From positions 1,184,001 through 1,248,000 of the forward strand of contig CAXWPH010000015.1 of the NCBI GenBank assembly GCA_963666055.2: a stretch of 64,000 nucleotides of DNA. The letters are read 5' to 3'. Under the pieces are notes generated by a model that saw nothing but the letters and a program-made list of their open reading frames with translations, was not told the origin of the DNA and made no database searches. The DNA comes from Acidobacteriota bacterium (GTDB taxonomy: Bacteria; Acidobacteriota; UBA890; WLXD01). Positions 13,642 to 61,553 of the stretch are shown one piece after another (the first letter of the stretch is position 1; each line of letters begins with the position of its first letter). The position numbers and the translations under genes were made by a program.

Positions 13642-13670
13642 CCCGCCACACTTCCACCAGGGCGTGCTAG
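13642..13670 (-). repeat. Degenerate solo terminus of the 279-bp MITE family
   Basis: Minus strand ctagcacgccctggtggaagtgtggcggg resembles the TIR ctagcaggccgtggtgaaagtgtggtggg; its TAG is the stop of the minus-strand CDS. Confidence 0.65.
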
Positions 13671-14732: not shown

Positions 14733-15802
14733 ATGTCTCCACGACACGTCCACCTGTGGACCGTTGCCCTGCTCGCGGCCGGTGTGTTGATACCCGCGGC
14801 CGCTGGGGCAAAGTTGCAGCACTGTCTCAATTCCGAGCTACCCATTCTCTCCGGAGGGGTAGGACGGGAGGGGATCCCGGCGCTGACGAACCCGGTGCTC
14901 GCATCAGCGGCGGCGGGCGACGGCTTCATGGCCCCGACGGACATGGTGCTCGGAGTCGTTATCAACGGCACCGCGCGTGCCTATCCGCACCGCGTCCTCT
15001 GGTGGCACGAGATCATCAACGACGTGATCGACAGCGTCCCGCTCGCGGTGACGTACTGTCCGCTCACTGGAAGCGGTCTGGTGTACGACCCGGTGATCGG
15101 CGGAGAGCACGTGACCTTCGGGACCTCGGGACTGCTGCTCGAAAGCAACCTGATCATGTTCGACCGCACCACCGAGACCCTCTACGCGCAGATGAAGGTG
15201 TTGGCAATCTGTGGGCCGGATCGTGGCTTCGTGCCGTCGCTTATTCCGGTCGCTCAGTCGACCTGGGCGGCGTGGAAGGCGTTACACCCCGCCATTACTC
15301 GAAATACCCTTATGGCACCTACGATCAGATCGACGAGCCACTGTTGATATTCCCGGTGACCGTGTTTGACCAGCGCCTGCCGAGCAAGCTGCTGGTGCAC
15401 GGAATCGAACACGAGGGGAAGGCCAAGGCCTACCCTTACGACGCGCTCGCCTCGCGAGGCAGACGCGTGGCGGTGAACGACGAGGTCAACGGTCGACCAG
15501 TGCTCGTCGTGTTCGATGCGGATGGCGAGATGGTGTTGTCGTTCGATCGCCGGGTACAAGTACGGAAGAAGAACGGTAAGCTCCGCACCCGGACGCTGAC
15601 CTTCGACGTGGTCGACCCCGACGTGTTTCCGTTCCAGCTCGAGGATGTGAACACCGGCACGCGCTGGAATCTCTTCGGGGAGCCTGTGCAAGGATCACTA
15701 GTGGGCCAACTGGTGGGCGACCGATTGCCGCGGATCACCAACGCTCACACGGCGTTCTGGTTCGCCTGGGCGGCGTTCAACATCGGTACCGACATCTTCT
15801 AG
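14733..15802 (+). pseudogene. DUF3179 family protein, frameshifted with an internal deletion near 15290
   Basis: N-half has GIPAL, HEIIND, TYCPLTGS, NLIMFDR; after WKALHP the family-like text continues in another frame to FWFAWAAF. Confidence 0.75.
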
Positions 15803-16007
15803 CAGGCCGTGGTGAAAGTGTGGTGGGTCTGGCGACAGGGTCTTGCGAAGTGTAGGCAAGGAGAGAGGAGGAGGCGATGGATTTGGGGCCATCTGCAGCG
15901 TTGGCTTTCCTCGACGATGGCTAGGGCATCGCCTGTGTCAGGCCGCCTTGCATCTGGCCCCAACTCGCCGTAACCAGACCCACCACACTTTCACCACGGC
16001 CTGCTAG
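15799..16007 (+). mobile_element. MITE-like element, 209-bp internally deleted copy
   Basis: 34-bp TIR ctagcaggccgtggtgaaagtgtggtgggtctgg...ccagacccaccacactttcaccacggcctgctag; near-identical to 17275-17553 but lacking 70 bp; sits on the DUF3179 TAG stop. Confidence 0.85.
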
Positions 16008-16114
16008 CCGCGGCCACCCGGAGGGGTGGGCCGAGACGCGACGACCTCCGTTTCGTGATAAGTGAACGGCACTGTTCAAGGCTGTTCCTTGCACCGGACC
16101 CGAGGGAGCAAGCG

Positions 16115-16633
16115 ATGACCGGGGCCGATTGGCGGCGAGATATTTTCCAAGCGCTGGTGGATCTTGATGTCCGCCAGGTCGCTTTTGTCCCCGATGCCGG
16201 GCACACACGATTGATCGAAATGTGCTGCGACGACAGCCGCATCGTTACGGTGCCGTTGACCACGGAGGAGGAGGGTGTTGCGCTGCTCGCCGGCGCCTGG
16301 CTGGGCGGTCAGCGCGGTGCGCTGCTGATGCAGAGTAGCGGCGTTGGCAACTGCATCAACATGTTGACGTTGGTGAAGAGTTGCCGCTTCCCGGCATTGA
16401 TTATTGTCGCCATGCGCGGTCAGTGGGGCGAGACCAATCCGTGGCAGATGGCGATGGGCCAGGCGACCACAGAATCGCTACGTTTGATGGGCGTGGTGTC
16501 GATCGATGCCGACCGGGCCGAGGAGGTGGGAGCCGCCGTAAAGGCCGCCGGCGACATGGCGTTCAACGGAGCTGGCGGTGCCGCCGTCCTGCTGTCGCAG
16601 CGCCTGATCGGCGCCAAGGTATTCGAGGACTAG
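16115..16633 (+). CDS. comD: ThDP-dependent sulfopyruvate/phosphonopyruvate decarboxylase, alpha subunit
   Basis: FVPD, TTEEEGVALLAGAWLGG, LMQSSGVGNCIN, MRGQWGETNPWQ. Confidence 0.75.
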   Translation: MTGADWRRDIFQALVDLDVRQVAFVPDAGHTRLIEMCCDDSRIVTVPLTTEEEGVALLAGAWLGGQRGALLMQSSGVGNCINMLTLVKSCRFPALIIVAMRGQWGETNPWQMAMGQATTESLRLMGVVSIDADRAEEVGAAVKAAGDMAFNGAGGAAVLLSQRLIGAKVFED

Positions 16634-16647
16634 CAGGCCGTGGTGGA
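16630..16647 (+). repeat. Short solo MITE terminus on the comD stop codon
   Basis: ctagcaggccgtggtgga matches the first 16 nt of the TIR. Confidence 0.6.
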
Positions 16648-16654
16648 TAGGCCG

Positions 16655-17260
16655 ATGGATGCCGCGCGTGCCACGACCTACCCACTGCGCCGCCGCGAGG
16701 TGGTTTCGAGCCTGCTGTTCGACCGCGGCGAGCTCTTGGTCATTGCCGGTTTGGGCGCCCCGGCGTGGGATGCCACCGCGGCTGGGGATTCGCCATTGAC
16801 CTTCCCGTTGTGGGGAGCGATGGGCGGCGCGTCGTCGATGGGTCTTGGCCTCGCTATCGCCCGGCCCGAGCGGCGAGTGCTGGTGCTGACCGGCGACGGC
16901 GAGATGCTGATGGGCATGGGGTCGCTTGCTACGGTCGCCGCCTTGGCGCCCGGCAATCTGGCGATCGCCGTGCTCGACAACGAGCGTTATGGTGAGACGG
17001 GAATGCAGCCCACCCACACTGCGGGCACAACCGACCTCGCCGCGATCGCTGCGGCCGCCGGCATACCGGTGACCGGCACGGCGCACGATGCCCAAGGGCT
17101 GAAACGGGCGCTAAGCGATCTGCGCGGTGCGGTGGGGCCGGTCTTTTACGCCATCAAGGTGCGGGCGGAAGAGCTTCCTCTAGCCCTGCCGCCGCGCGAT
17201 GGCGTGTGGTTGAAGGACCGGTTTCGAACGGCGCTGTTGGGAGACGGAGCTTCAACCTGA
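16655..17260 (+). CDS. comE: ThDP-dependent sulfopyruvate/phosphonopyruvate decarboxylase, beta subunit
   Basis: WGAMG and the ThDP-binding GDGEMLMG...LDNERYGETGMQPT motif. Confidence 0.75.
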   Translation: MDAARATTYPLRRREVVSSLLFDRGELLVIAGLGAPAWDATAAGDSPLTFPLWGAMGGASSMGLGLAIARPERRVLVLTGDGEMLMGMGSLATVAALAPGNLAIAVLDNERYGETGMQPTHTAGTTDLAAIAAAAGIPVTGTAHDAQGLKRALSDLRGAVGPVFYAIKVRAEELPLALPPRDGVWLKDRFRTALLGDGAST

Positions 17261-17274
17261 CGCCGATGGATCGA

Positions 17275-17553
17275 CTAGCAGGCCGTGGTGAAAGTGTGGT
17301 GGGACTGGCGACAGGGACTTGCGAAGTGGAGGCAAGGAGAGAGGAGGAGGCGATGGTTACCCCATCGTTGACGAGGAACGACGCAGGATACGCGCGCAAC
17401 CCCCTGTCGCCCGAAGGGTTACGACGATTTGGGGCCATCTGCAGCGTTGGCCTTCCTCGACGATGGCTAGAGCATCGCCTGTGTCAGGCCGCCTTGCATC
17501 TGGCCCCAACTCGCCGTAACCAGACCCACCACACTTTCACCACGGCCTGCTAG
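17275..17553 (+). mobile_element. MITE-like element, full-length 279 bp
   Basis: 34-bp TIRs bounded by CTAG, two internal hairpin arms, no coding capacity; near-identical copy at 46144-46422. Confidence 0.88.
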
Positions 17554-18039: not shown

Positions 18040-18072
18040 CTAGCAGGCCGTGGTGGAGGTGTGGTGGGCCGG
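18040..18072 (+). repeat. Solo MITE terminus
   Basis: ctagcaggccgtggtggaggtgtggtgggccgg closely matches the TIR. Confidence 0.75.
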
Positions 18073-30978: not shown

Positions 30979-31008
30979 AGGGTGGTGAAGAACTCTGGTG
31001 CGTCTGGC
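30979..31008 (+). repeat. Degenerate terminus of the variant MITE subtype
   Basis: agggtggtgaagaactctggtgcgtctggc resembles the TIR of the 43669-43947 copy. Confidence 0.6.
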
Positions 31009-31083
31009 AAGAAGGGACAGATCACGGCGGGAGTCGTCGTCGACTCCCGCCACGGTTCCCCATCGTCGCCCCGAGCTCAACCC

Positions 31084-31737
31084 TCAGGACACGGATCGCG
31101 TCCTTGCCCCGCCTACCGCAGCCTGCCGGCTATAGTCGAGCGCGTAGAGCACGTAAGCCGGGTAGATCCCGGTGCCCTGGGAGCCGGAGATCGTGTAGTT
31201 GTTGCGGCCCGTACCCCGAGACACGAAGGCGATCTCCACCCGCCCGGTGACGCTGCTGAAGCCCTTGTCCTCGGCGTGGGCGCCGAACGTGAAGTAGGTC
31301 CAGACGACCCCGGTGCCGGAGCCGATGGGCCGCACGCGATCCGGCAGCCCGAGCGTTACCGCGATGCGTCCGCGGTCCGACTTCCAGCCGCGGAACGGCG
31401 TGTCCCGGTATCTGGTGTTGGCATGGGCGACGCGCTCGTAGAACGCATCCTTGAACGGCCTCCCCTGGTCGCCGGGTTCGTTTTCACGACGCTCCCAGAA
31501 TCGGGCGATGAAGGAGGCGCGCTGGTCGGTGGTCGCCAGCTCGTTCCAGGTGTCGCTCTCCTCGTCGAGAATCAGGTACTCGGCTGGTCCGTCCAGCCAT
31601 CGGTCAGAGTCGCTCTCGTAGTAAGCCATCGCCGCGGCGCCCGTTGTCGGGTACTCGTCGCGCGCGGCTGCCGGCGCCGCCGGGGGCAGCGCAAGGATCA
31701 GGGCCACTGTCAGGGCGGTCGCGGTCGGAACTCTCAT
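31084..31737 (-). CDS. Secreted GWxTD domain protein (copy 1)
   Basis: Signal peptide, FIARFWERR, FYERVAHAN, GWKSDRGRIAVTLGLPD. Confidence 0.88.
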   Translation of the reverse strand: MRVPTATALTVALILALPPAAPAAARDEYPTTGAAAMAYYESDSDRWLDGPAEYLILDEESDTWNELATTDQRASFIARFWERRENEPGDQGRPFKDAFYERVAHANTRYRDTPFRGWKSDRGRIAVTLGLPDRVRPIGSGTGVVWTYFTFGAHAEDKGFSSVTGRVEIAFVSRGTGRNNYTISGSQGTGIYPAYVLYALDYSRQAAVGGARTRSVS

Positions 31738-31795
31738 GTCTTTCTCCTGTAGCCTCAGATCGGTAGGACCGAACCTCGTCGTCGGGCTCGGCGTT

Positions 31796-35916: not shown

Positions 35917-35949
35917 CGTGGTGGAAGTGTGGCGGGGCTGGCGACAGGG
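35917..35949 (+). repeat. Degenerate MITE terminus
   Basis: cgtggtggaagtgtggcggggctggcgacaggg resembles the TIR plus the start of arm A. Confidence 0.6.
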
Positions 35950-36046: not shown

Positions 36047-36317
36047 TTAAGTGTCACAGGATAGCCTTTATAGTTGGAGTCTCAGGATCTGAGCCCGCGC
36101 CCCGGCGGGCCCACCAGAGGTAATCGGGGGGACCGGCAGTGCCGACGATAACGCGGAAGATCGAGACCTCTCATCCTGTGCCCAGCCGTCATTCGGGGCG
36201 CGAGAGCGACCAGTTGGGTAGCTTCCCAGATCGGTGGTCGGCATGGTATCGGCCCGCTCGCGGCATGCCCGGCGACTGCCTTCGCGTTCCCTACTGAGGG
36301 CCTGTGTTAGGGGATCA

Positions 36318-39300
36318 ATGCGCGGATCAATGCTTGATGAGGTCGTGCTGGGCTTGCGCCAACGGTCGAGGAAGCGACAACTGGAAGCCACGGCTCTGAC
36401 CCAGCGTTCACCGGACGAGCGTCGACCCACGGAGGCCGAGCAGGCATGTCTCGCCGCAGCCGAAGCAGCGCGGGCGGCGGAGCAGCTAGCCTACAAGGTC
36501 CGAGCACGTACCGCCGAGCGCGCCGGGTTCGAGCGAGAGAAGGTTGCCCTGCTCCGGGAGAGGGCCGCCGAGGTGGAGATCGAGCTTGCTGCGGCCGAGG
36601 CAAGGCTCGTGAGCGATGCATCGGGTAGCCGCTCGGCTCGCGCCGCGGAAACGGCCATCGAGCGCGCCGTGGGTCGGGCAGAGCTCGAACGCGCCAAGGT
36701 GACCAAAGCGCAAGTCCACTTCCGGAAGGCCGAAGCCAGAGCAGCGAAGGCCGAGAAGGTCTGGCGTGCGGAGGCCGAATGCGCCACGGTTGCCGACGAG
36801 GCCTTGGAGGCGGCGCGTCGGGAGGCGGCCGAGCCGGCGGATCTCGACAGCCCGGCGACCGCAGACGCGCTGGCCAAAGCCAAAGCGGCCGAGGCTGCGG
36901 CTCAGGAAGCCAAGCGGGCCGCGGAGACAGCCGAGCAAGCCCGGGCACAAGCTGCCAAGCGTGAAGAGGTGGAGCGCACCAAGGCTGCCGAGGCCGAGAC
37001 CAAGCTTGCCGACATCGAGGTCAAGCTCGCCGATATCGAGGCCAAGGCGGCCGAGGCCGAGACAAAGGCCACGACGGCAGAGACGGCACGCGTGGCGCAG
37101 GACGCCAAGGCGAATCGTACCGTCTCGCGGCACGCCAAGGCGGCCGACGCTGCTGCACGGGAAGCGGAGCGAGCTACGGCGGCGGCGAAGCAGGCCAGGG
37201 CAGAGGGAGCGGCGCGCGCCGAGACCGAGCGACAGAGAGCGGCCGAAGCCGAGGCGAAGCTGTCGGAGATCGAGGCCAAGCTCGCCGATGTGGAGGCCAG
37301 AGCCACCGAAACCGAGATCTCGGCACGGCAGGCCGAGGCGGAAAGGGCCCGCTTGGCGGACAATCGCAAGGCCGACCTCGTCGCCGCGGAGCAGGTGAAA
37401 GTTGCCGAAGCCGAGGCGCACCAAGCCAAGTGTGCAGCCGAGGAGGCAGACCGAGCAAAGACAGCGGCCGCCGAGCGCGCTGAGGTCGAGCGCGTCAAGG
37501 CGGCGGACGCTGAGGCCAAGCTGTCGGAGATCGAAGCCAAGCTGGCCGATGTCGAGGCCAAGGCCGCCGAGGCCGAGGCCAAGGCTGCCGCTGCGGAGAA
37601 GGCGCGCGTCTTCGGCGACATGGAGGCCAACCGCGCCGCCGGCGAGCAGGCCCGGGCTGCGAAAGCTGCCACACGGCAGGCCAATCTTGCTACCGCCGCT
37701 GCTGAGCGTGCCAAAGCACAGGTGGCAGAGCTCGCGGACGCCGAACGCGCCAGGGCCGCCGAGGCCGAGGCCAAGCTGACCGATATAGCGGCCAAGCTCG
37801 CCGATGTCGAAGCCAAAGCGGCCGAGGCCGAGGCCAGGGCAAAGCAAGCCGATGCCGAGAAGACCCGCATGGCGCGAAACGCCAAGGCCAATCGTGCGGC
37901 CGCCCAGCAAGCCAAGGTTGCCGAGGCCGCGGCACTCCAAGCCAAGCGTGCCGCGCGAGCGACCGAGCGGGCCAAAGGGATGGCTGCGGAACGTGCGGAG
38001 CGAGAACGCGCCAGAGCTGATGAAGCCCGAACCAGGGCCCGGGACGCCGAGGCGAAGGCCGCCGAGACCGAGCAGCAGAGGCATGCAGAGGCCGAGCGGG
38101 CCAGGACCGCCGAACGAGCCGCCGAACGGGCTCATGCCGGCGCGGCAGAACGCGAAGAGTACGAGCGTGCCAAGACCGCCAAGGCACAGGCCAAAGCCCA
38201 GGAAGCGGAAGCCAAGCTTGCGAAGGTCGAGCCGAAGCTCGCCGAAGCCGAGCAGAGCAAGGCCGCCGGCCGGATTGCGGAGAATGCCCGAGCCGAAGCC
38301 GCCGAGCGGGCACGACGCGAACGCGCCAAGGCCACAGCTGCACAGGCGAAACTCGAGGAGGCGAGCGACCGGGCCGCGGCGGCTGAATCCAAAGGCGAGG
38401 ACGCAGAGCGCGCCCGCCGTGCCGAAGCGCAGAAGGCGGCCGCCGCCAACGCCGCCGCCGAGCAAGCGAGGGCCCGTGCCGTTGAGTGTGCACAGCAGGA
38501 GCGCTCCAAGGCCGTCGAGATCGTTGCTCAGGCCGAGCGAGCGCAGGCCGAAGTAGCCAAGCGCCTCGAGCGGGAGCGAGCAAAAGCAGACGAGACTCAG
38601 GCAAAGCTGGCGGCGACCGAGGCCAAGCTCGCCGCGGCAGAGGCCAAGGCCACTGCGGCCGAAGCCAGGGCTGGCGAGGCCGAAACTGCGCGGAAGACGG
38701 CTGCGAAGAAAGCCGTTCGCCTAGAGTCCCGGGCGGCCCGGGCGCGCGCTTCCGGCGCTGAGGCGAAAAACACGAGTCGCCGCCATCGTCGTAGGCCCGC
38801 GACCTCCAGGCGACAGCCGACGCTCGGCAGAACGCCCTCCGCTAAACCGGGCGCGCTCAACCTCGGCAGGAGCGCGTCAAAAGCTCGCCCGGATCCCGTT
38901 TCTCTCGATGTACCGGCCGCCGCCGATCCGGCTGCAGAAGTACGCCAGGCGTTGGCTGCGGTGCGCAACAAGTCTCTCGAAAGCCCTCGTCTGCAGCGGG
39001 TCCTGAAGCAAGTGGCGCGCCAGGTGGACTTGAAGGACGCCTCGCCTGAGGATCACTCACTGCGAGTCAGCCGGATGGCGCGGAAGCTTGCCGAAGCCAA
39101 GGAAATCACCGGGCCGCATCTTCTGGCGATCACAATCGCGGGGCTCGTGCACGACATTGGCAAGTCGTGTATTCCTGACGCGATCATTGAGAAGGCTCGG
39201 CCGAGTCGCGAGGACATGGAGCTCATCCGTCGCTACGCGGAGTTCGGGGTGGAGCTACTCGAGCCGTTGCCCTGCATGGAGCCTGTCCTGCCGATCGTTG

Positions 39301-39557
39301 GAGGCCAGCAGGAGCGCTGGAATGGCTCCGGGTACCCAAGGAGCCTGTCGCGCAAGGACATTCCGATCGGTGCCCAGATCGTGGCGATTTGCGACATTTA
39401 TAACGTGTTAAGGATGGATCGCCGTTATCGGCCAGCCCATTCGGAGGAACGCGCGCGTCAGATCATCCACGAAAACGTCGGTGGCCTCTGGAGCCCGGCG
39501 GTCGCCCAGCTCTTCCTCAAGCGTATTGTCCCCAAGATGGCGATGCGGAGCGAGTGA
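36318..39557 (+). CDS. Large Ala/Glu/Lys/Arg-rich coiled-coil protein with a C-terminal degenerate HD-GYP domain
   Basis: About 800 aa of helical repeats; DHSLRVS, VHDIGK, QQERWNGSGYP, AICDIY, RRYR. Confidence 0.85.
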   Translation: MRGSMLDEVVLGLRQRSRKRQLEATALTQRSPDERRPTEAEQACLAAAEAARAAEQLAYKVRARTAERAGFEREKVALLRERAAEVEIELAAAEARLVSDASGSRSARAAETAIERAVGRAELERAKVTKAQVHFRKAEARAAKAEKVWRAEAECATVADEALEAARREAAEPADLDSPATADALAKAKAAEAAAQEAKRAAETAEQARAQAAKREEVERTKAAEAETKLADIEVKLADIEAKAAEAETKATTAETARVAQDAKANRTVSRHAKAADAAAREAERATAAAKQARAEGAARAETERQRAAEAEAKLSEIEAKLADVEARATETEISARQAEAERARLADNRKADLVAAEQVKVAEAEAHQAKCAAEEADRAKTAAAERAEVERVKAADAEAKLSEIEAKLADVEAKAAEAEAKAAAAEKARVFGDMEANRAAGEQARAAKAATRQANLATAAAERAKAQVAELADAERARAAEAEAKLTDIAAKLADVEAKAAEAEARAKQADAEKTRMARNAKANRAAAQQAKVAEAAALQAKRAARATERAKGMAAERAERERARADEARTRARDAEAKAAETEQQRHAEAERARTAERAAERAHAGAAEREEYERAKTAKAQAKAQEAEAKLAKVEPKLAEAEQSKAAGRIAENARAEAAERARRERAKATAAQAKLEEASDRAAAAESKGEDAERARRAEAQKAAAANAAAEQARARAVECAQQERSKAVEIVAQAERAQAEVAKRLERERAKADETQAKLAATEAKLAAAEAKATAAEARAGEAETARKTAAKKAVRLESRAARARASGAEAKNTSRRHRRRPATSRRQPTLGRTPSAKPGALNLGRSASKARPDPVSLDVPAAADPAAEVRQALAAVRNKSLESPRLQRVLKQVARQVDLKDASPEDHSLRVSRMARKLAEAKEITGPHLLAITIAGLVHDIGKSCIPDAIIEKARPSREDMELIRRYAEFGVELLEPLPCMEPVLPIVGGQQERWNGSGYPRSLSRKDIPIGAQIVAICDIYNVLRMDRRYRPAHSEERARQIIHENVGGLWSPAVAQLFLKRIVPKMAMRSE

Positions 39558-43037: not shown

Positions 43038-43106
43038 AGCAGGAACTGCCGAGAACCTCGTCGACGGCGTCGATAAGGAGAGATAGGCACTGGCCGGGAG
43101 GGCGCG

Positions 43107-43511
43107 ATGCGAGCGATGTTCGGTTTCTTACGGACCATGATGACAATGCGCAAGCCCGTGGTGGGCTGGATCATGCTGTTGATGCTAGTCAACTTGGTCA
43201 TTCCCCTCTTCTTCGCTGGGACTCTAGAAGGTAAGGCAGTCCTGGGAGCCTTTGTGGTTGGGGCACTCCTTCAGGGGTGGATTTTCTCTGCGAAGGGTTT
43301 CGTTCGTCTGCTGTGGATTGGCCACATCGTCTGGGTTCCGATGGTGGCCTGGCTGTGGATACGGCTGGAGGTCGCCCCTGCCGGTAGTCTCTTCAGATAC
43401 TGGCTGCTCGCGACCATTGTCTTGGTGAGCCTGTCTCTGTTTATCGACGCCGTCGACATCATCCGCTATCTGAGAGGTGAGCGGGACCCTTATGTCGAGA
43501 CTCCGGCCTGA
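43107..43511 (+). CDS. Small membrane protein of unknown function
   Basis: Four TM segments, GFVRLLWIGH, DAVDIIRYLRGER; GGAGG RBS. Confidence 0.7.
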   Translation: MRAMFGFLRTMMTMRKPVVGWIMLLMLVNLVIPLFFAGTLEGKAVLGAFVVGALLQGWIFSAKGFVRLLWIGHIVWVPMVAWLWIRLEVAPAGSLFRYWLLATIVLVSLSLFIDAVDIIRYLRGERDPYVETPA

Positions 43512-43537: not shown

Positions 43538-43672
43538 CCAGGGGTAATGGAATCCGGACTGACTAGCCCCATCTTCTGGCTGGGTATGGGCCTGGCCCTC
43601 ACGGCCGGCTTCATTGCGGCTTGGCCTGTAAACTACTGGCTGGTGGGCAAGGGCATACGCCAGGTCCATTAG
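43538..43672 (+). pseudogene. C-terminal remnant of a DUF4396-like membrane protein
   Basis: PGVMESGLTSPIFWLGMGLALTAGFIAAWPVNYWLVGKGIRQVH*; its TAG is the MITE insertion site. Confidence 0.6.
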
Positions 43673-43947
43673 CAGGGTGCTGAAAAACTCTGATGGGTCT
43701 GGCGGGTGGGTCTTGCTGGCGAGATCAAGGAAGAGCGACGAGGGCGATGCCAGGGTCATCGTCGAGGAGCTGTAACGCTGAGATCGCCAGCAACCCCCAC
43801 GCGCCCGAAGGGTTACGGCGTCGTGGAGCCATCTGCAGCGTTGGCCCTCCTGGACGATACGACAAGCATCGCCTGCGTCGCGCCGCCTTGCATCTGGCCC
43901 CACGACGCCGTAACCAGACCCACCAGAGTTCTTCAGCACCCTGCTAG
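43669..43947 (+). mobile_element. MITE-like element, divergent 279-bp subtype
   Basis: TIRs tagcagggtgctgaaaaactctgatgggtctgg / ccagacccaccagagttcttcagcaccctgcta; same length and arm layout as 17275-17553. Confidence 0.85.
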
Positions 43948-46143: not shown

Positions 46144-46422
46144 CTAGCAGGCCGTGGTGAAAGTGTGGTGGGTCTGGTTACGGCGAGTTGGGGCCAGATG
46201 CAAGGCGGCCTGACACAGGCGATGCCCTAGCCATCGTCGAGAAAGGCCAACACCGCAGATGGCCCCAAATCGCCGTAACCCTTCGGGCGACAGGGGGTTG
46301 CGCGCGTATGCTGCGTCGTTCCTCGTCAACGATGGGGTAACCATCGCCTCCTCCTCTCTCCTTGCCTCCACTTCGCAAGACCCTGTCGCCAGACCCACCA
46401 CACTTTCACCACGGCCTGCTAG
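46144..46422 (-). mobile_element. MITE-like element, full-length 279 bp, inverted relative to 17275-17553
   Basis: Reverse complement is near-identical to 17275-17553; flanks gcaCTAG...CTAGtgc rebuild a palindromic empty site. Confidence 0.88.
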
Positions 46423-50059: not shown

Positions 50060-50141
50060 GAAAAAGCCGGAGCCGACCGATCTCGCTCAGCTACCGGCGC
50101 CAATGATCCGTCCCCTACGAAGATCACAGGAGGGAAACGAC

Positions 50142-50789
50142 ATGAGAGTTCTATCCGCGACCGCACTGGCGCTGGCATTGATGCTTACGCTGCCCACAAG
50201 GGCGCCGGCAACCGACCGCGTCGAATACCCGACCACGGGCGCTGCAGCGATCGCGTACTACGAAAGCGACGCCGATCGCTGGCTGGACGGACCGGTGGAG
50301 TACCTGATCCTGGACGAGGAGCGTGACGCCTGGAACGAGTTGGTGGCCACGGACCAACGCGCCTCCTTCATTACCCGCTTCTGGGAGCGTCGCGACAACG
50401 AGCACCGAGCGAATCTGTTCAGGGATGCGTTCTACGAGCGTGTCGCCTACGCCAACACCCACTACCGGGACACGCCGTGGCGCGGCTGGAGGTCCGACCG
50501 CGGGCGCATCGCGGTGACGCTCGGGCTGCCGGATCGCGTGCGGCCCATCGGCTCTGGCACCGGGGTCGTCTGGACCTACTTCACGTTCGGGGCACACGCT
50601 GAGGGCAAGGGCTTCAGCAGCGTCACCGGGAGGGTGGAGATCGCGTTCGTGTCGCGGCTTACCAGACGCAACAATTACAGGATCTCCGGGCCACAGGGTA
50701 CTGGCATCTACCCTGCCTACGTGCTGTATGCGCTCGACTGGAGTCGACTGGCTGCGGTCGGGGCGTCAAGCAGGCGGCCCGTCTCTTGA
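50142..50789 (+). CDS. Secreted GWxTD domain protein (copy 2)
   Basis: Paralog of 31084-31737; GWRSDRGRIAVTLGLPD; AGGAGG RBS. Confidence 0.88.
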   Translation: MRVLSATALALALMLTLPTRAPATDRVEYPTTGAAAIAYYESDADRWLDGPVEYLILDEERDAWNELVATDQRASFITRFWERRDNEHRANLFRDAFYERVAYANTHYRDTPWRGWRSDRGRIAVTLGLPDRVRPIGSGTGVVWTYFTFGAHAEGKGFSSVTGRVEIAFVSRLTRRNNYRISGPQGTGIYPAYVLYALDWSRLAAVGASSRRPVS

Positions 50790-50826
50790 GCTGATCGAAC
50801 CCTGAAAGCTGGCGAACGCACACACA

Positions 50827-57727: not shown

Positions 57728-57871
57728 GAGTTTGTCACACGCCAGTTCCCGAGAGCACACTGCGATCCCCATGCCGCTCGATCTGCGAGGAGCTTGGACG
57801 AAACGACCACGCCTGGCCCCCGCGTACTCAGCCGGCGGAGAAAGTCGTGTCGCCGGATCTCGTCTGGGGTG

Positions 57872-57968
57872 CGACGATGCGCCGCGGCATCGCCAGCCTC
57901 GCCGCGCCTTGATCTCGCCCGCAAATCCCATCTGCGGCGCTATCGATTCCCCTGGTACAGGCCACTAG
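57872..57968 (-). repeat. Remnant of a related structured repeat (one arm, different CTAG-bounded end)
   Basis: Minus strand ctagtggcctgt...gcgagatcaaggcgcggcgaggctggcgatgccgcggcgcatcgtcg resembles arm A of 43669-43947. Confidence 0.55.
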
Positions 57969-60162: not shown

Positions 60163-60905
60163 GCGATCCGAAGGAAAACCGAAGGGTGAAGAAGATCCTG
60201 ATCGTCGAGGACGAGCCTACGATTGCCGCCGCGCTTCAAGACGATCTGGAGCTCGAAGGGTATGAGGTCGAGGTCGCGCGCGACGGTGCAACGGGTGCGA
60301 CGCGAGCCCTGGCGCGCACGCACGACCTGATCCTCCTCGACGTGATGCTGCCACAGAAGGACGGTTTTTCGGTCTGTCGGGAGCTGCGGGCGGCGGGGCT
60401 TGGTACACCGATCATCATGTTGACCGCCAAGGGTCAGGAGGTCGACAAGGTGGTCGGGCTGGAGCTGGGTGCCGATGACTACGTGACCAAACCGTTCAGC
60501 CCGCGGGAACTGATGGCGAGGATCAAGGCGGTACTCCGCCGCGCCGACGGTTCCCACGAGTCAGAGCGGGTCCAGCAGCCCCTGCAAATCTGCGAGTTCG
60601 GCAATGTGAAGGTCGACTTCGGCCGCTGTCAGGCGTGGCGCGAGGGCAAGGAATTGGACTTGACGGCGATGGAGCTCAGGTTACTGGGGGCCTTTCTGGC
60701 CCGCCCGAGCCGCGTGCTGAGTCTCGACGAGCTGATCGAGCAGGCATGGGGCGCCGATGTTTTCCTGTCTGACCACGTCGTCTACACGCACATCAACAAC
60801 CTGCGCAGGAAGATCGAGGCCGACCCCTCCCATCCCCGCCATCTGATCACGGTGCGGGGCATGGGCTACCGATTCGATCCTGAACCAAACTTGAACTCAG
60901 CTTGA
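60159..60905 (+). CDS. OmpR/PhoB family response regulator
   Basis: ILIVEDE, LLDVMLP, MLTAK, GADDYVTKPF, winged helix ITVRGMGYRF. Confidence 0.95.
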   Translation: MSDPKENRRVKKILIVEDEPTIAAALQDDLELEGYEVEVARDGATGATRALARTHDLILLDVMLPQKDGFSVCRELRAAGLGTPIIMLTAKGQEVDKVVGLELGADDYVTKPFSPRELMARIKAVLRRADGSHESERVQQPLQICEFGNVKVDFGRCQAWREGKELDLTAMELRLLGAFLARPSRVLSLDELIEQAWGADVFLSDHVVYTHINNLRRKIEADPSHPRHLITVRGMGYRFDPEPNLNSA

Positions 60906-61010
60906 TGCACCGGGCCAGGAGCCCCCGCTATCGTGGCGACATGTCCCAACACCTTCAGGAGGACCGCTGCCATGATGAGAATCCGAATCGCCCTCACGCT
61001 GCTGGCCGCG
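60877..61010 (+). repeat. About 133-bp direct repeat, copy 1 (OmpR-type boxes, RBS, signal-peptide start)
   Basis: atcctgaaccaaacttgaactcagcttgat...ctcacgctgctggccgcg is repeated at 61421-61553. Confidence 0.88.
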
Positions 61011-61427
61011 TTTGTGGTTTCCGGCGTCGCAGCACAGCAGGTGCAGACCCCCGAGACGCTGCTGGGTGGGGCGCTCCACCAGGAGGAAGTGGAGGGGAAC
61101 CTCGAGGCAGCGATTGAAACCTACGAGATGATCCTCGCCGGACCCTCCATGAGCCGCTACGTCGCCAGCCGAGTTTTGCTGCACATCGGCTTCTGTTACG
61201 AGAAGGCGTCTCGACAGCGATCCCTTCGATCTCTACGGCGACTGTGCTACGGAACCCCGCCGCCTCGAACCCTAGATCCAGACCGACAGCGCCGGCGTAC
61301 CGTTACCCGGATGGAGTTTGCGCGCCTGCTCGATGAGTTCGAGGGTGCGTTCCAGGCCGCCCATGAGAATGGCACCAAAAGCGTGAAGCCACCGGTAGTG
61401 ACACGACAAGGGATCAAACAATCCTGA
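60972..61427 (+). pseudogene. Truncated secreted TPR-domain protein with a probable unrelated tail
   Basis: Signal peptide, EEVEGNLEAAIETYEMIL...LLHIGFCYEK (TPR-like), then an abrupt change in composition. Confidence 0.6.
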
Positions 61428-61553
61428 ACCAAACTTGAACTCAGCTTGATCCGCCGGGCCAGGAGCCCCGCTATCGTGGCCACAGGTTCCAACACCTTCA
61501 GCAGGAACGTTGCCATGGTGAGAATCCGAATCGGCCTCACGCTGCTGGCCGCG
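61421..61553 (+). repeat. About 133-bp direct repeat, copy 2
   Basis: Aligns to 60877-61010 with scattered substitutions and one 1-nt indel. Confidence 0.88.

Follow-up and report, generated by a model that had tools for sequence, protein, structure and literature searches.

A short transposable element of Acidobacteriota with a conserved, strand-specific core and ends resembling those of three transposase groups

Bacterial MITEs are usually viewed as the two ends of one parent insertion sequence (IS) with disposable filler between them; the classic examples are Correia/NEMIS, RUP, ERIC, and YPAL, of which RUP and Correia are linked to IS630. REP/REPIN repeats with their RAYTs are abundant intergenic palindromes that occur as inverted doublets, are recognized as single-stranded DNA (ssDNA) hairpins, and have a short hairpin with a conserved tetranucleotide at its foot. 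The attC sites of integrons have RYYYAAC/GTTRRRY ends and lie in cassette arrays. Bacterial MITEs and the bcr1 repeat have been reviewed (PMC3184786), and in sedentary integron arrays the active attC strand lay on the template of the leading strand in 25 of 30 cases (PMC5371416). In Geobacter metallireducens, 24 intergenic repeats (Gmet_R1001-R1024) were named “predicted short RNA elements” in 2009, and relatives were mentioned in other Geobacter and in Desulfotalea (PMC2700814, Fig. S1).

We describe here an element in which, against the usual view of MITEs, the filler is conserved and the ends are exchanged. It is almost certainly a non-coding, non-autonomous MITE. Our leading explanation, held tentatively, is that it inserts at the TA of CTAG and that its cores are strand-specific ssDNA sites aiding movement by whichever TA-targeting DDE transposase lent the ends.

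Copies of the element and their target site

The window (the whole 64-kb stretch of DNA that we analyzed) contains 11 matches to the end motif of the element, where 0.03 would be expected, and the four copies and five solo ends listed in an earlier note on this DNA are all present. The note had delimited a 279-bp unit with a 34-bp TIR; the TIR-bounded copies are real, but the element proper is 273 bp long with a TIR of 31 bp, the outer CTA and TAG being a target base plus the duplicated TA. The full type A two-arm element lies at 17278-17550 (plus strand), between the duplicated TA at 17276-17277 and 17551-17552; its left TIR (17278-17308, plus strand) is delimited by end-motif matches, and its right TIR (17520-17550, minus strand) by end-motif matches and the fold. 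Two cores, located by a covariance model and alignments, lie head to head between the TIRs. In the arm A core (17333-17386, folding strand plus), box 1 is formed by 17333-17338 with 17380-17386, box 2 by 17344-17349 with 17369-17374, and the apical hairpin by 17350-17368; in the arm B core (17442-17496, folding strand minus), box 1 is formed by 17491-17496 with 17442-17448, box 2 by 17479-17485 with 17454-17459, and the apical hairpin by 17460-17478. A central mini-hairpin, CCC-GAA-GGG (17410-17418; cUUCGg on the other strand), separates the arms. The earlier note had seen a Y shape, with arms joined by cgaag; the two hairpin arms stand, but cgaag lies within a CC-GNA-GG mini-hairpin that 76 of 95 distinct two-arm elements retain, and a four-way junction is equally good. 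The placing of one core on each strand was borne out, since the covariance model found both arms on opposite strands in every full copy in the window; and both full types fold better than shuffled sequences (z = -10.5 and -11.2).

The other copies differ in completeness and type. The type A copy at 15802-16004 (plus strand), which had been described as deleted, is a remnant that has lost most of arm A but keeps the arm B core whole (15882-15964, minus strand); its left TA falls within the TAG stop codon of the ORF at 14756-15802, and the copy is missing from the corresponding site of genome G002. A full type B two-arm element, in the target T|TA|G, is located at 43672-43944 (plus strand), and G002 carries other DNA at this site. 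A full, inverted type A copy is located at 46147-46419 (minus strand); the orthologous site of G002 has one CTAG and no insert, whereas the G002 sites of the 15802 and 17278 copies are not clean empty sites. Solo type A ends, all recognized by the end motif, occur at 13642-13670 (minus strand, decayed), 16630-16648 (plus strand, with a shorter remnant also in G002), 18040-18068 (plus strand), and 35917-35949 (plus strand, tip-less), and a tip-less solo type B end at 30979-31007 (plus strand). The solo end at 16630-16648 provides the TAG stop codon of the ORF at 16055-16633; the region 16055-17260 encodes sulfopyruvate/phosphonopyruvate decarboxylase-like alpha and beta genes, and it is the alpha gene that ends on this stop. 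At 57832-57968 (minus strand) there is a remnant of a family with IS630 ends (type C-like), absent from the earlier note's list, with an end at 57958-57968 and a damaged core.

A BLAST search of the genome containing the window (G000; 5.7 Mb, 95.7% complete), which the earlier note had proposed, gave 278 merged loci, 83 of them 270-290 bp long. Among end pairs of 260-279 bp, 77 are A-A, six B-B, five C-C, and one A-B, with about 25 shorter pairs besides; about 90 copies are two-arm. By blastn, copies are present in 20 of 25 other genomes of the same order and in none of five from other orders; the relatives' copies stay at about 279 bp even down to 75% identity. Plasmids in PLSDB, searched by blastn with both types, gave no match other than a single 32-nt chance match, and the matches in viral contigs are mostly chance, with a few true cores.

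Flanking bases were compared in 115 paired elements of G000: variation was counted 22 times at the outer bases and seven times at the inner ones (T|TA|G, C|TA|A, G|TA|T, etc.). Since the outer bases vary more than the inner ones, the duplication is TA and not 4 bp, with CTAG as the preferred context. CTAG is scarce in this genome (5391 observed vs 8576 expected), C|TAG ends 623 of 4153 crude gene calls, and 39 of 89 two-arm ends that face the 3′ end of a gene fall on its stop codon. The CTAG in the apical loop of arm B also takes new insertions (for example, C3:136961-137514 and C6:367119-367672 of G000), and it bounds tandem arrays of an 88-bp right-end piece (e.g., C11:160026-160413 and C7:59590-59983).

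We also observed several other repeats. The window contains an ORF of 1107 aa (36234-39557) with long alanine/glutamate-rich repeats (periods of 21 and about 255 nt) that looks coiled-coil-like; two inverted paralogous gene segments (31083-31748 and 50131-50790; 81-85% alike); an upstream region and gene start duplicated 543 nt apart (60877-61010 and 61421-61553); and a 29-nt inverted repeat (43060-43457) around a small ORF (43107-43511). Elsewhere in the genome, self-BLAST revealed a tandem repeat with spacer-like inserts, CRISPR-array-like by eye, at C15:336113-337931.

Ends shared with insertion sequences

DUF772 and DDE_3 transposases were sought in the 26 genomes of the order. The left end of a 1.5-kb element of genome G011 shares 20 of 20 nt with the type A end (17276-17295 in the window) and diverges beyond them; the best NCBIfam match of its protein is IS1182 (159 bits, under the cut-off of 270), so that we call it IS1182-like. 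The first 21 nt of the type B element at 43672-43944 match the end of an IS5 element of genome G007 at 20 of 21 positions, and the IS5 proteins of G007 and G005 score above the NCBIfam cut-off. The same length and different sequence of this copy had been reported correctly, but its TIR differences, read earlier as paired changes, are not drift: the two ends match two different insertion sequences. Similarly, types C and D of G000 match IS630 ends (23 of the first 30 nt; 27 of 40 against the right end of the G007 IS630), and a second IS5 group shares 16 of 20 positions with the end of another Acidobacteriota element (L347). By these sequence matches, the ends of the element are borrowed from three transposase groups (IS1182-like, IS5, and IS630). 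The core itself is absent from five autonomous IS with matching ends (best nhmmer E = 0.77).

Derivation from IS630, which the ends of types C and D of G000 support, is not supported by those of types A and B of the window; and the multi-copy IS5 of G000 was ruled out as the source of the A and B ends, because its ends differ. The earlier expectation of a YTAG target of IS630 or IS5 type was right about the TA in CTAG and about the IS5 end of type B, but the main type is IS1182-like. By its ends, the mover of the main type is IS1182-like, rather than an IS630 or a RAYT: an autonomous element with the same termini was found as an IS1182-like element in G011 and as an IS5 in G007, but not as a RAYT in G000, where Y1 HUH transposases number zero (they occur in one of the 26 genomes of the order). 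G000 contains the IS630, but no IS701 (DDE_5), and no matching IS1182-like or IS5 transposase was found in G000 or in G002-G004. Ten long end pairs in G000, inspected by eye, enclose no transposase (tblastn finds only the IS630), and no mobilizer gene recurs beside the core among 266 ORF calls at 93 loci. The element has no transposase of its own, in agreement with the proposal that it spreads in trans.

Across five end types of two-arm families, the distance from the tip to the first box (54-55 nt) and the inside length (270-273 nt) are constant. In G007, which has 146 DUF772 and 43 DDE_3 matches in 5.1 Mb, IS630 copies adjoin a MITE tip in eight of nine loci examined (L070, L077, L080, L083, L085, L087, L089, and L090), and these MITEs are mostly a variant whose TIR starts with TAGGAG instead of TAGCAG. 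An IS630 on a MITE tip is the substrate that an exchange of ends would need, although common use of the rare CTAG sites may suffice instead.

The folded core, its range, and selection

The core is a rod-like hairpin with two inverted copies of one purine-rich internal loop, C(A/G)AGG opposite RACGNNG, and an apical hairpin that has a G.T pair in 46 of 50 cores. The spacer between the boxes is 5-7 nt in 12 and 14-17 nt in 32 of 44 loci, and none has the 8-13 nt that the search also allowed; the two classes differ by about one helical turn, a phasing that rests on these two spacer classes only. In short-class arms (n = 25), 23 of 29 pairs of the named structure are changed on both sides, above all 500 shuffles and all slid controls; for long-class arms (n = 21), RNAalifold, unaided, gives the same fold, with 18 of 27 pairs compensated. 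Covariation extends to a non-Watson-Crick pair (C.A in 32, A.G in 17, and C.G in one of 50 cores). A weak tree gives this pair about 10 parallel changes, with five independent pairs supported and four to five concordant (p = 0.06 at best); for the C-G/G-C pair of box 2, only two supported independent pairs are found. We left out 5 of 55 rows as mis-parsed before the mismatch, tree, and mini-hairpin counts. Apical ATG/CAT, TAC/GTA, and TAG/CTA pairs were a search filter in the alignment sets, which makes their counts there circular; without the filter, 60 of 118 loci have apical pairs of these types.

Mismatches are unevenly distributed between the two strands of the core: purine-purine mismatches outnumber pyrimidine-pyrimidine ones by 90 to 18, and G.T outnumbers A.C by 47 to 14, which identifies one strand as the folding strand. 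An A.G/C.A exchange is of a kind known from sheared pairs in RNA. This asymmetry and this exchange both speak for a reading in which the core is a structured RNA motif (for protein binding, processing, or stability), useful to the host or to the tolerance of the element in transcripts, which the ends merely spread, and in which the replication bias described below is a by-product of hairpin deletion. We consider this reading plausible but rather unlikely. It would fit a central loop that reads cUNCGg on one strand, but the same loop is equally a C-GNA-G DNA mini-hairpin; and an RNA role leaves the constant tip distance over unrelated ends unaccounted for. A kink-turn has a 3-nt bulge before tandem G.A/A.G pairs; it was rejected as a description of the boxes, which have G.A-type pairs flanking one Watson-Crick pair and a bulge of 0-1 nt.

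Searches with Rfam 15 gave no match at gathering score in the window (below it, only miRNA/snoRNA chance hairpins), and none to the core of 10 distant loci, loose thresholds for ribozymes included. The catalysis suggested earlier therefore found no support: a self-cleaving ribozyme, or part of an RNA-based route of mobility, might be thought of because the core has conserved unpaired purines and travels with mobile DNA, but the fold is rod-like, with two symmetric loops and no multi-way core or pseudoknot, and DDE transposition is indicated by the duplicated TA and by TIRs of IS origin, so that we regard such activity as very improbable.

The core is widespread. An HMM finds 290 matches in G000, and a regular expression finds 86, compared with 0-1 in Markov controls. 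A degenerate pattern has some match in 91 of 301 genomes of the phylum, many of them single chance matches, with repeated cores in several other families. In a GTDB scan, at least 44 of 118 loci among the matches listed pass a strict parse, and none in the reversed control; they include at least 15 loci from Nitrospirota, nine from Thermodesulfobacteriota, seven from Acidobacteriota, two from Planctomycetota, and one each from Pseudomonadota, Myxococcota, Spirochaetota, and Bdellovibrionota, with seven more that have no phylum. By sequence, then, the core appears to be present in at least eight named phyla, of which those with a single MAG record may be mis-binned. Elsewhere, the core mostly lies in elements that have one arm, measure 100-185 bp, and end differently again.

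This range bears on the reading of the element as an ordinary MITE, with a functionless passenger for a core, stems kept by fold-back repair, and a likeness due to common descent or horizontal spread. Template switching can produce stem covariation; young copies decay evenly; and the strand bias is explicable by passive deletion. Fold-back repair, however, would erase the unpaired boxes rather than keep them, and the boxes are nearly invariant over the eight phyla while the adjoining stems have been replaced completely. The covariation of a non-Watson-Crick pair, and a length and geometry that outlast the replacement of the ends, likewise argue against a passenger, and we find it improbable. 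The earlier suspicion that conservation exceeds what a passive MITE needs was upheld by the same core inside unrelated ends, its spread over the phyla, and the covariation.

The core is very probably under selection. At 19 orthologous, apparently sessile Nitrospiraceae sites, box 1, which lay outside the search pattern, is changed at 7 of 151 bases, compared with about 20% of stem positions and 25% of those outside (after halving for ascertainment, p = 0.02 to 0.001; 9 of 28 orthologous groups had no usable pair). Part of the TIR is changed by 10% at these sites, whereas the fastest codon position of the same genomes differs by 37%. Conservation of box 1 at orthologous sites means selection or conversion after insertion, and selection at sessile sites is something that a mobility aid alone leaves without explanation. 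In this respect the data favor another alternative, that the core serves the host as a DNA signal (domesticated, of the REP/BIME kind, or as a polar binding site of a protein of replication, repair, or the nucleoid), with retention favoring the folding strand on the leading template and mobility needing only the TIRs. The distribution of copies is less favorable to a host signal: it is patchy, with many genomes of the phylum lacking any copy, insertion sites differ between G000 and G002, and single young copies show no sign of selection. In 77 young A copies, which give low power, private substitutions per column are 0.46 and 0.35 in the boxes vs 0.44 elsewhere; given this even decay, the filter appears to act at amplification. 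For the RNA reading the orthologous copies are ambiguous, since box 1 is changed at 0 of 39 bases where it is sense to genes and at 5 of 56 where it is antisense (p = 0.08), but it is still kept in the antisense copies (8.9% changed).

Strand orientation, mechanism, and relation to known systems

One-arm copies were examined in seven genomes, six of Nitrospiraceae and one of Desulfarculaceae. The C-rich strand, which is the leading-strand template, carries the folding strand in 90 of 121 (14 of 135 copies were left out for weak skew), and in 58 of 82 independent loci once orthologues are merged (p = 2e-4). The folding strand is antisense to leading-strand genes in 45 of 57 cases and sense to lagging-strand genes in 17 of 21 (Fisher p = 2e-6), gene directions being taken from a simple scorer of ORFs by amino-acid composition, with no gene finder. 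In a closed genome (G340) in which dnaA and the skew switch were located, the folding strand is on the leading template in 23 of 32. In the same genome, one-arm elements directly follow the second and third genes downstream of dnaA (L518 and L519, at C1:2722 and C1:5375), and the latter element is common to at least three Nitrospiraceae genomes. Beyond Nitrospiraceae, the strand test covers 3 Desulfarculaceae copies, G000, and 22 Geobacter copies; the last, counted from PMC2700814 with an assumed origin, gave 15 of 22 (p = 0.13).

The one-arm copies of G000 have 19 junction types in 20 elements, and in 15 of 19 the C-rich strand carries the remaining core; for lone cores the figure is 25 of 34, or 30 of 50 with a cruder skew estimate. 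The sense-strand fold is more stable than the antisense fold in 48 of 50 cores. The arm that is lost is the one whose stable fold is on the lagging template, the exposed one; the core therefore folds as DNA in vivo. The bias is equally expected from passive deletion of the more stable fold on the lagging template, so that it speaks for folding as DNA, not for function as DNA.

Two-arm copies of G000 are neutral to replication (35:29) but are co-directed with flanking genes (27:8; 36:12 in another count). The earlier description of the element as orientation-independent thus holds in that each strand has one foldable core and that replication leaves the two-arm copies neutral, but not with respect to genes. 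This co-direction favors an RNA role, as does the name “predicted short RNA” given to the Geobacter repeats in PMC2700814; so does a one-arm element (L271:1387-1622, minus strand) that we observed inside a TPP riboswitch match (54.4 bits, just above gathering score), on the sense strand of the riboswitch. One-arm copies, on the other hand, are not sense to their flanking genes (29 sense, 49 antisense). Two sets of metatranscriptome contigs give next to no cover of the element.

Outside Firmicutes, IS5, IS630, and IS1182 have little orientation bias of their own (PMC3971601), and the replication orientation of the one-arm copies is not expected from these elements alone. That orientation, seen in the seven genomes and again in G000, is what a host signal with a preferred strand would produce; but the bias of loci shared between genomes (22:6) does not significantly exceed that of genome-specific loci (36:18; p = 0.31), and we hold a host signal to be unlikely.

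We favor a DNA-level reading because the tip geometry survives the replacement of the ends, young copies decay evenly, and transcription leaves the one-arm copies unoriented. We would put the core acting as DNA at slightly better than an even chance, and its acting as an aid to mobility at somewhat under one; the A.G/C.A exchange, the co-direction of two-arm copies with genes, and the lack of a matching IS1182-like or IS5 transposase in G000 count against the latter. The mechanism that we propose for the mobility aid is as follows. The ends, the duplication, and the empty site show that movement is DDE transposition in trans into the TA of CTAG, the action of the enzyme itself being presumed. 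At a fork or in a cruciform, each strand could fold back, and the two TIRs would then form one duplex end. A putative host factor, for which we identified no candidate binding protein, would bind both purine-rich loops, which are inverted and separated by one or two turns of the helix, and may hold the short element in a geometry that the transposase can cut; it might thus aid the cutting or the pairing of the ends of a very short element. With two head-to-head cores, one foldable core would be on the exposed template in either orientation. New ends could be acquired through insertion of an IS into the CTAG that is restored at the tip, deletion and fold-back copying then making the element symmetrical. 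More speculatively, and with considerable doubt, the whole may be a selfish module, a folded DNA core, bound by a conserved host protein, that captures the ends of unrelated TA-targeting IS (IS1182-like, IS5, IS630), survives across phyla by switching transposases, and in its two-arm form is active on either template.

Should a host factor use the core as a folded-DNA site, this would point to an unrecognized host step in the transposition of very short elements and to a route by which non-autonomous elements outlive their transposase. If it acts as RNA, it is an uncatalogued structured motif with tens to hundreds of copies in genomes of Nitrospira, Desulfobacterota, and Acidobacteriota. Either can be tested in a cultured, tractable host, Geobacter metallireducens, and on either reading the strand-specific loss of hairpins at the fork can be read out cleanly in vivo.

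In the literature covered (ISfinder and most subscription journals lie outside it), we found no account of the element as a MITE, of an exchange of ends, or of a core shared across IS families; further multicopy families are given in supplements of PMC2996986 and PMC3543383 and may include this one. Like the core, attC sites are strand-specific ssDNA hairpins with conserved unpaired features, and they favor the same template side (PMC5371416); an attC site was nevertheless rejected, because the ends of the element are TA-bounded IS TIRs and its copies are dispersed, with no common gene family among their neighbors and no integrase link. REP/REPIN repeats are likewise abundant intergenic palindromes in inverted doublets, but this assignment was also rejected, given the count of Y1 transposases above and ends that belong to DDE elements. 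The bcr1 repeat of the Bacillus cereus group, as described in PMC3184786, resembles the element in being mobile and non-coding, with a cruciform-like fold and two stem-loops with compensatory changes, and it is transcribed; compared by description only, it differs in its length (155 bp), its 5-bp direct repeats, and its restriction to one species group.

The closest record is that of Gmet_R1001-R1024, which contain the same core on the opposite strand: the central palindrome and both strands of box 1 can be read in the printed alignment, which we compared by eye with Desulfobacterota variants of the core. As delimited there, these are one-arm repeats of 111-116 nt, described as possible RNA only; PMC2700814 gives no mobility, ends, two-box structure, mechanism, or range beyond Geobacter and Desulfotalea. 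With bacterial MITEs in general the element shares its short, non-coding, TIR-bounded form, TA duplication, many intergenic copies, stable fold, and movement in trans. It differs from the classic families in having a core that is common to families with ends of three transposase groups, is not found in the parent IS, lies at a constant distance from the tip, and occurs in eight phyla. New here are the link between Acidobacteriota and Nitrospira, the three transposase groups, the constancy of the geometry, the structure of two boxes, and the connection to the Geobacter record.
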